DNA of 12,643 nucleotides from a virus. Its lineage: Duplodnaviria; Heunggongvirae; Uroviricota; Caudoviricetes. The position numbers and the translations under genes were made by a program. The stretch lies in the IMG/VR virus record IMGVR_UViG_2778261064_000023, one strand, 5' to 3'. Of this stretch, positions 11,549 through 12,226 are shown piece after piece. A model generated the notes under the pieces. The model saw nothing but the letters and a program-made list of their open reading frames with translations, was not told where the DNA came from and did no database searches. Position 1 is the first letter of the stretch. Every line of letters begins with the position of its first letter.

Positions 11549-11833
11549 ATGACCGAAGCCGAAATGCTCAAAATGATTCGCCAGATTGCCGGGATCAGAC
11601 CACCAGCAGGCAAACAGGAGGCCACGCAGCCGGACAGCGTTATCGCTGAGAACTATGCGCGTGTGGTGGCTGAGGTGATGCGCCGTGACGGTATTGAGCT
11701 TAACGGAGTGGATATGCGCGACATACGCACCAGGGTACTCGAGTTATTGGCCTACCGTCGCCGCGTGCAGATGTACCGGGAGAGCGAGAAAAAGACTTAC
11801 CAGTGGAAGAAGCCGGAGCGGTTACGGCGGTAA
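11549..11833 (+). CDS. Hypothetical protein (94 aa)
   Basis: ATG at 11549 preceded by GGAGG at an 8-nt spacing (the ORF extends upstream to 11519); product MTEAEMLKMIRQIAGIRPPAGKQEATQPDSVIAENYARVVAEVMRRDGIELNG...; no family recognised. Confidence 0.5.
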   Translation: MTEAEMLKMIRQIAGIRPPAGKQEATQPDSVIAENYARVVAEVMRRDGIELNGVDMRDIRTRVLELLAYRRRVQMYRESEKKTYQWKKPERLRR

Positions 11834-11849
11834 CCAGTTGATAAAAAGG

Positions 11850-11905
11850 CTCCTCAATTTTGAGGAGGGTAGCTGGTGGCTGGCAGAATGTAAATTTACA
11901 TTCTG
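11850..11905. terminator. Two hairpins between convergent genes: CTCCTCAA/TTGAGGAG (11850-11867) and the 22-bp perfect palindrome CAGAATGTAAATTTACATTCTG (11884-11905); likely bidirectional terminators
   Basis: Palindromes read from sequence; no long T-run, so intrinsic termination is uncertain. Confidence 0.4.
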
Positions 11906-11935
11906 GTGATTTAATCATCTGATTTACCCGATGGC

Positions 11936-12226
11936 TTACCTTACCAGGCCATAGCGGATTACCGTGCAATGCGCACCATCGCCACCAATACGCACATCAA
12001 AACGTGGCTCACGGACTTTCACACGCTCCAGCAACTTATCACGAACCATAGCGTTTAGCGTCCTTCGTGTTGCCTCTATGTGATATCGCTGATATTCGGA
12101 ACCATAGAGCAGCACTGTAACACCACGAACATCAAAAGGTGGATCTCCAGCCTCCACCCGCACCCAATCGCGATACTCAGGTTTGTAGAGTTCAAGGATC
12201 TGTTTTTTGTGCCTGGTCATTCTCAT
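11936..12226 (-). CDS. Hypothetical protein (96 aa)
   Basis: Minus-strand ATG preceded by AAGGAG at an 8-nt spacing; product MRMTRHKKQILELYKPEYRDWVRVEAGDPPFDVRGVTVLLYGSEYQRYHIEATRR...; no family recognised. Confidence 0.5.
   Translation of the reverse strand: MRMTRHKKQILELYKPEYRDWVRVEAGDPPFDVRGVTVLLYGSEYQRYHIEATRRTLNAMVRDKLLERVKVREPRFDVRIGGDGAHCTVIRYGLVR

Follow-up and report, generated by a model that had tools for sequence, protein, structure and literature searches.

The right end of the 12,643-nucleotide (nt) viral sequence IMGVR_UViG_2778261064_000023, the whole of which is called the window here, carries two small convergent open reading frames (ORFs), ORF A on the plus strand and ORF B on the minus strand, whose 102-nt spacer contains an 18-nt hairpin (hairpin 1) and a perfect 22-bp palindrome. 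A first-pass annotation of this DNA had seen in them a pair of cargo genes at the accessory end of a satellite, converging on a pair of terminators; the convergence is probably the junction of two separate modules of a phage-inducible chromosomal island (PICI), one closed by ORF A with a family of hairpin units and the other formed by a palindrome, ORF B and a gene of the PerC family, and not a two-gene cargo unit. The features of the junction, from left to right, are the following.

11536–11540, plus strand: Shine–Dalgarno sequence GGAGG of ORF A, 8 nt 5' of the ATG at 11549, read from the sequence.
11549–11833, plus strand: ORF A, 94 amino acids (aa), isoelectric point (pI) 10.1, family phrog_1561; RefSeq annotates identical coordinates.
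11827–11870, plus strand: window copy of the ORF A unit (nhmmer match, 16578–16621 in locus L001), overlapping the ORF A stop codon.
11831–11843, minus strand: perfect match TATCAACTGGTTA to the IHF consensus WATCAANNNNTTR, a sequence match in the 5' half of the unit.
11841–11867, minus strand: predicted intrinsic terminator of ORF B, a stem CTCCTCAAAATTGAGGAG of 7 pairs followed by CCTTTTTAT, from a terminator scan and folds.
11850–11867, no strand: hairpin 1, CTCCTCAATTTTGAGGAG, 18 nt, the stem-loop of one ORF A unit.
11884–11905, no strand: perfect 22-bp palindrome CAGAATGTAAATTTACATTCTG, centred on AAATTT, with no T-run on either strand.
11936–12226, minus strand: ORF B, 96 aa, pI 9.9, predicted winged-helix DNA-binding protein; RefSeq annotates identical coordinates.
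12235–12240, minus strand: Shine–Dalgarno sequence AAGGAG of ORF B, 8 nt 5' of its ATG, overlapping the right arm of the 32-bp palindrome.
12238–12269, no strand: near-perfect 32-bp palindrome between ORF B and PerC2, a candidate operator or 5' hairpin sequestering the Shine–Dalgarno sequence.
12341–12643, plus strand: PerC2, PerC family (PF06069, E 7.5e-23), divergent from ORF B; the frame is open from 12272 and the RefSeq start is at L001 17092.

The two genes with good ribosome-binding sites, and their convergence on two hairpins including the 22-bp palindrome, are borne out as first described, and both genes are under purifying selection (median dN/dS 0.23 over 54 pairs for ORF A; 0.09–0.18 against three E. 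coli alleles for ORF B). The satellite setting was also rightly recognised. The 1051 bases searched around the pair (11250–12300) are 100% identical to an island of about 14 kb in E. coli chromosomes, which in a RefSeq-annotated chromosome lies between cspD/yljB and clpS; this identical island is locus L001 of the loci opened for comparison (L001, L003–L015, L140 and L141). It carries an integrase, an AlpA-like regulator and C4/isrK antisense RNAs with an Icd-like gene, followed by a DUF4222 gene, a DUF927 primase and then iteron-like repeats (6155–6310), ssb, a ProQ/FinO protein, PerC and the packaging region; the Pfam matches among the window proteins are Nu1, DUF1441, PerC and ProQ. The sequence features by which Gram-negative PICIs are recognised are found, namely an integrase, an AlpA-type regulator, a primase/rep gene with iterons, a packaging/interference module, a length of about 10–15 kb and the absence of lysis and tail genes, and the window is, judged by its gene content, an E. 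coli PICI satellite. Both genes stand to the right of the packaging module, as the first-pass annotation had placed them, and ORF A follows directly on the cos site that ends it.

11179–11252, minus strand: cos2, a lambda-like cos copy and inverted repeat of cos1 at 8046–8118 (53 nt at 94%, or 74 nt at 88%).

The cos2 site resembles lambda cosN, GGGCGGCGACCT. For relatives of the island such as EcCICFT073, helper-phage induction and high-frequency transfer have been demonstrated (PMC6092414, PMC6739421).

The earlier statement that neither protein can be assigned to a family fails for both: ORF B models as a winged helix, as described below, and ORF A matches phrog_1561 over its full length (E 9.1e-49, residues 3–96 to profile positions 1–93 of 93), a family that carries no functional annotation; no Pfam or NCBIfam match was obtained for ORF A. 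Its close relatives form 987 clusters at 90% identity; where these carry names, E. coli accounts for nearly all of them, and Shigella and Citrobacter contribute one entry each. Of 5426 complete E. coli genomes, 1589 (29%) contain ORF A, at 1994 places and in up to six copies per genome, and GenBank phages gave no match by DNA search or tblastn. Among species-representative genomes a first scan was empty and a second returned only a capsid-forming PICI of Shigella flexneri; these results suggest a narrow range, Escherichia and Shigella, the scans depending on exact word matches.

In every annotated context opened, ORF A is the last annotated gene of the PICI. It holds this terminal position behind four different packaging modules and at no fewer than seven integration sites (the contexts adjoin bioD, phoQ, smrA, tRNA-Ile/mug, narP and clpS): in the capsid-forming PICIs L004, L005 and L007 it follows terL by 6–14 nt, in O-island 51 of O157 and its relatives (L003, L008, L010) it follows terS and a cos site, in L006 and L009 a ClpP-capsid fusion and cos, and in EcCICFT073 (L141) the homologue follows rppA (c1503) and a cos site. 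The cos-like sequence lies just 5' of the gene in L003, L008, L010 and EcCICFT073, and the DNA upstream of ORF A is unrelated from island to island. Since every PICI type examined ends with it, ORF A behaves as a core gene of these islands and is not cargo. The protein has an invariant C-terminus of the type WKKPERLRR, and a weak structure prediction shows three helices, the last of which is long and basic; our working guess is a small accessory protein that binds nucleic acid or protein at the late or packaging stage.

Several known island proteins were considered as identities for ORF A, of which RgdR, Rpp and TerS were rejected. RgdR is a DUF4222 protein encoded before the primase, here at 3609–3923 on the plus strand; it has been reported in all E. 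coli PICIs analysed (ISME J paper), and the O157 type III secretion regulator ECs1581, the DUF4222 protein of which the window gene is a homologue, has 99 aa with an RGD motif at 20–22 (PMC3378721), the window protein having RPGD and not RGD. Relatedness to Rpp or TerS proteins was rejected, no PDB match falling below E 0.2, including RppA/RppC (6hlk); the EcCICFT073 gene c1503, which precedes the ORF A homologue, does match the RppC structure 6hlk (E 5e-31). The Tai tail-assembly-inhibition systems adjoin pri and not this end of the island, and the 'hypothetical gene 1792' of a capsid-forming PICI, whose mutation lowers transfer, is not mappable to ORF A from the published text.

Comparison of the DNA 3' of ORF A in nine islands revealed a repeat unit of about 46 nt with the form (G/C)(G/C)TAAC-N4-YTGATATTYYCG-RWAAC-[stem]-[2-4 nt]-[stem']-GG, or in short TAAC-N4-YTGATATT followed by a short hairpin. 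The first unit begins 6 nt ahead of the ORF A stop codon; further copies lie downstream. Scanning the ORF A 3' end in viral contigs gave 70 unique downstream regions, and 132 copies of the unit (90 unique) were found in 51 distinct regions, with 1–6 copies per region; by nhmmer profile the units lie solely 3' of ORF A and solely on the plus strand, in the sense of ORF A, with none elsewhere in up to 33 kb per locus. The stems differ wholly between copies and are nevertheless complementary within each (CGCAA/TTGCG, CCTCAA/TTGAGG, CAGCC/GGCTG, TTCGCC/GGCGAA, CCCCC/GGGGG, GCCCA/TGGGT). When hairpins were counted per unit against shuffles, 61 of the 90 unique units had at least five uninterrupted Watson–Crick pairs, compared with 5% of shuffles, and 50 distinct hairpin sequences were present. 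A two-unit probe hit 1322 genomes at 1891 places, six at most in any one genome, a distribution that mirrors that of ORF A and is unlike that of a dispersed repeat; the unit is a previously undescribed PICI-specific repeat. Rfam gave no match at E ≤1 in the window segment 11800–11950 or in the unit arrays of L007–L010. Two side observations concern these arrays: in capsid-forming PICIs four GTGAC(A) repeats with a spacing of about 10–11 nt lie 3' of the units (L004 9404–9450; L005 7520–7570), and the window encodes a ProQ/FinO-domain protein (7117–7653, plus strand; PF04352, E 1.2e-24) of a class that binds structured RNA 3' ends and could relate to the hairpin units, yet many unit-bearing PICIs have no ProQ.

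Compared with its shuffles, the spacer between the genes folds better in either orientation (z -4.1 and -4.5). In the minus-strand sense, hairpin 1 has the G+C-containing stem and the U-run of a Rho-independent terminator and is, as far as sequence can tell, the intrinsic terminator of ORF B. In the sequence, a T-run follows neither the plus-strand form of hairpin 1 nor, for either strand, the 22-bp palindrome, so that the proposed pair of terminators shrinks to a single hairpin acting in a single direction. The 22-bp palindrome is itself the sole perfect palindrome with arms of at least 9 in the window, where shuffles expect 0.005 for arms of 11, and variants of it occur 3' of ORF A elsewhere; that of L004, GTGCAAATTTGCAC, differs at two pairs, with both arms changed.

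ORF B has no meaningful match to Pfam or NCBIfam at E ≤1, and a profile search against PDB sequences gave a best E of 0.79. Its AlphaFold2 (AF2) model (pLDDT 83) has the order helix-helix-helix-helix-strand-strand of a winged helix-turn-helix (HTH) fold, and the residues RRTL in its predicted recognition helix vary little or not at all; on this model the protein looks like a DNA-binding regulator rather than an effector. Relatives are few: they form 17 clusters at 90% identity, and a set of 1.84 billion proteins yields 51 representatives at 50% identity. Full-length DNA matches occur in 49 of the 5426 complete E. coli genomes, and about 356 have a partial match (query 185–334) of about 75% identity. 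One of the latter was opened (L140 6748–7152, E. coli 005008, beside paoD) and encodes a 119-aa homologue, 52% identical; the palindrome is conserved beside it, and the gene borders an island remnant with PerC and a pRiA4b ORF-3 gene. GenBank phages gave one weak match, in the early region of Klebsiella phage ZX1. A further homologue, 55% identical and with the same palindrome, was observed in L011 (Logan contig ERR11507397_205) at the end of a PICI-like element with a D5 primase, a ClpP-capsid fusion and DUF1441; this element, which may be a satellite embedded in a helper, adjoins the terminase-portal-capsid block of a prophage.

In the window ORF B is part of a variable right-end module made up of the 32-bp palindrome, ORF B and PerC2. 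The palindrome, 72 nt before the RefSeq start of PerC2, is kept in six variants with symmetric changes, for example GACAGTACTGTC, GATAGTACTATC and GATAGTGCTATC, and is retained despite unrelated flanking DNA beyond it (L013, L015, L011, L140) and beside the roughly 52%-identical protein; a 45%-identical homologue of ORF B has a different palindrome at the same position. This pattern makes the palindrome a likely candidate operator of ORF B. Most simply, ORF B would be a winged-helix repressor that regulates itself through an operator also covering the PerC2 promoter region, the main alternative being an RNA hairpin that sequesters the Shine–Dalgarno sequence. PICI-borne PerC homologues are known to activate or silence LEE1 (PMC6092414; PMC11773190).

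From the genes, their distribution and synteny, the predicted fold and the conservation of repeats and palindromes, all of which are observed, we infer DNA binding and repression by ORF B and an RNA-level role for the hairpins. According to the explanation that we consider probable as a whole, ORF A is the conserved gene with which the PICI packaging region ends, its product small, basic and mostly helical, and the units would form structured 3' ends of its transcript, stabilising or terminating it, with a possible role at the DNA level through IHF. A dimer of ORF B may bind the 32-bp palindrome directly upstream of its own start and would there repress both itself and the divergent PerC2 promoter region, gating the PerC-type regulator. 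Hairpin 1 would be used twice, as an ORF A unit on the plus strand and as a Rho-independent terminator of ORF B on the minus strand.

Several results weigh against this explanation. The model of ORF A is poor (pLDDT 64) and gives no significant fold match (Foldseek E ≥2.3) or PDB sequence match (none below E 0.2), which leaves its activity a guess, and a promoter scan of 11232–11548 predicts no sigma-70 site for ORF A. RNAalifold found no consensus pairs in 30 units, because the unit hairpins sit in two shifted registers; mismatches inside the units are two G-T and two A-C, and with no G-U excess the RNA-level and DNA-level roles of the units are not separable. The 32-bp palindrome overlaps the Shine–Dalgarno sequence of ORF B, and a translational hairpin at the RNA level would account for its conservation just as well. 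Regulation of PerC2 is not obligatory, since ORF B and the palindrome persist in L013 and L015, where PerC2 is absent.

Among the alternatives, the one that survives best, as a possibility clearly behind the transcript-end explanation, is that the units act at the DNA level as IHF-bent protein-binding sites for packaging, replication or recombination, with ORF A as a possible ligand. The strict IHF consensus is found in 33 of the 90 unique units (59 with the relaxed form), and the three strict matches in the whole window lie at 6332 (ori), at 11146 beside cos2 and at 11831–11843 in the unit, against about 0.4 expected, an estimate from the consensus; moreover, ORF A adjoins cos in islands that do not form capsids, the unit flanks are more conserved than the stems, and the G-U bias of an RNA structure is not seen. 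However, different stems stand in tandem within one island (L003, L141), which is hard to fit to one sequence-specific binder, and all copies lie on one strand, in the sense of ORF A. Attachment (att) arm sites are excluded here, the units lying about 2 kb from the att end of the island and the arm-type repeats of the integrase, GGTGTAGTYAAT, being located elsewhere.

That ORF B is a recombination directionality factor or a replication-type winged helix, and not a transcriptional repressor, seems unlikely. Winged helices do occur in excisionases and initiators, those of replication terminator protein, DnaD-N and Orc1 are among the Foldseek matches of ORF B, and in another E. coli PICI, EcCIMP1, an opposite-strand AlpA/Xis-like gene at the same island end, with a PerC-family gene nearby, promotes excision of the helper prophage (PMC11773190); this gene, alpA_1, belongs to the AlpA/Xis family, whereas ORF B does not.

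Equally doubtful is the original proposal that both genes are accessory cargo, anti-phage or host-modulating effectors in a 3' hot spot of the satellite. PICI 5' or 3' ends are reported to carry accessory genes and immune systems (PMC11364771), ORF B is patchy, neither protein belongs to a Pfam or NCBIfam family, and the ORF B homologue of phage ZX1 lies next to an anti-repressor. The core behaviour of ORF A in all PICI types examined and the predicted DNA-binding fold of ORF B with its adjoining palindrome speak against it, and PADLOC models gave nothing significant with either protein (best BrxA, E 0.022, 12.7 bits; HEC-01B, E 0.027). When the post-ori genes of EcCICFT073 were expressed singly, lambda was inhibited by c1503/rppA only (PMC6739421), the text being silent on whether the ORF A homologue was cloned. 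Recognisable cargo of sister islands is positioned elsewhere: past PerC2 there is a pair of genes with SocA/Panacea domains, and upstream of ORF A a gene for a K88-type fimbrial subunit (L012/L014 3484–4379; L013/L015 8525–9366). What remains of the accessory claim is that ORF B lies in the variable right-end module, where it resembles a regulator; ORF A is core. The suggested operator fared no better.

11304–11316, no strand: direct repeat TACGTA-A-TACGTA, the proposed operator, unsupported.

The repeat exists and is not above chance, hexamer-N1-hexamer repeats occurring in the window at 5 places (9 overlapping positions) against 3.3 positions expected in shuffles, and nothing links it to either gene.

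Least probable, and largely refuted by distribution, is a functional pairing of ORF A with ORF B, as toxin and antitoxin or as antisense-coupled convergent genes with a common palindromic 3' region: the same convergence recurs in at least three backbones and sites (the window and L006 at clpS; L012 and L014 at narP; L013 and L015 at mug) and the exact 22-bp palindrome occurs only in loci also carrying the ORF B palindrome (11 of 11), but about 97% of the ORF A genomes lack full-length ORF B (1589 against 49), the 52%-identical homologue of about 356 genomes is convergent with a different gene in its island remnant, where there is no ORF A, the ZX1 homologue is likewise without ORF A, and the spacer, unrelated in content, ranges in length between 102 and 269 nt.

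Other parts of the island gave observations of their own. The packaging region contains two nested inverted repeats, the cos pair and a second, 108-nt pair (74%) at 9262–9368 and 10179–10286, which together bracket DUF1441 and a Nu1-type terS; the arrangement reads as two cos-terS modules facing each other, and two functional cos sites have been reported for EcCICFT073. The Nu1-type lambda small terminase, present instead of an Rpp, is encoded at 9483–10067 on the minus strand (PDB 6hn7_B, E 1.5e-38), while the DUF1441 TerS-like protein (8268–8777) has no sequence match in PDB. Just beyond the 3' end of the Nu1-type gene, at 9399–9455, an inverted repeat with 28-nt arms (AGAAAGGATCTGA...) is likely a bidirectional terminator, and a comparable strong hairpin with a T-run lies 3' of terS in L003. 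At 2719–2917 on the plus strand Rfam places isrK (80 bits) and C4 antisense RNA (75 bits) above threshold, with the Icd-like gene adjoining and a c4 a1b1 target at 44.5 bits, slightly under its threshold of 46.7 bits, an arrangement as in P1/P7-type immunity regions. Beyond the right end of the window, about 1 kb of non-coding DNA 3' of PerC2 (L001 17395–18852) is 94% conserved in L012 and L013. A 28-nt repeat, ACGGTGTAGTCAATGGTGTAGTTAATTT, stands at both island ends (on the left at L001 4704–4731) and recurs as GGTGTAGTYAAT in two copies near the right ends of other PICIs; these repeats are probably integrase arm-type sites common to different att specificities.

About one E. coli genome in three has a PICI, and the islands mobilise virulence regulators (RgdR, PerC) as well as defence genes. 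ORF A matches the islands in prevalence, is highly conserved and is under purifying selection, and the PICI papers cited here assign no function to its family. The hairpin/IHF units offer a sharp sequence marker of the 3' boundary of the PICI core, which aids the separation of core from cargo in defence-gene mining. If ORF B represses PerC2, the expression of a satellite-borne PerC-family protein becomes conditional, and members of this family activated or silenced LEE1 in reporter assays. A wider interpretation, rather improbable, would join ORF A and the units, with their IHF sites and hairpins, in a conserved but uncharacterised cis-trans module that closes the packaging region whatever the packaging strategy, a satellite-specific factor with a structured element for late expression, cos-end handling or transfer, and would make ORF B with its palindrome a dedicated switch gating a satellite-borne PerC-type virulence regulator. 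Overall, the architecture is that of an ordinary satellite with two modestly new details; the findings are useful annotation and do not overturn current understanding, and the two points that deserve specialist attention are an uncharacterised gene in 29% of E. coli genomes and a PICI-specific repeat.

The closest known systems are the PICIs of the EcCICFT073 type (Fillol-Salom et al. 2018, 2019), which have the same order of int, alpA, the Icd-like gene, RgdR/DUF4222, primase with iterons, ssb, PerC, a two-cos packaging region and the ORF A homologue last, this last gene having, as counted by eye, 76–80% protein identity to ORF A. In comparison to EcCICFT073, the island studied here has the lambda Nu1-type terS and the DUF1441 gene in place of rppA and the capsid genes, and an extra right-end module with ORF B, PerC2 and the 1 kb of conserved non-coding DNA. 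ORF B differs from the winged-helix repressors of the ArsR/SmtB, MarR and Fur types in lacking membership of a sequence family (Pfam, NCBIfam) and in being shorter (96 aa), with no recognisable metal- or ligand-binding or dimerisation extension. Among the extragenic repeats of E. coli, those of the RIP/BIME type consist of REP palindromes flanking an IHF site. The units resemble them as short extragenic sequences with an IHF consensus and small palindromes that follow the final gene of an operon; in contrast, they have another sequence and occupy one position in PICIs, with 1–6 copies per island and a genome count close to that of ORF A instead of hundreds per genome. Finally, the right end of EcCIMP1 (alpA_1 and the PerC-like EcCIMP1_025; Pick et al. 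2025), an island described as phylogenetically distant, is alike in having a small opposite-strand HTH gene at the far end and a PerC-family gene nearby, and the EcCIMP1 PerC homologue silenced LEE1 expression (PMC11773190).

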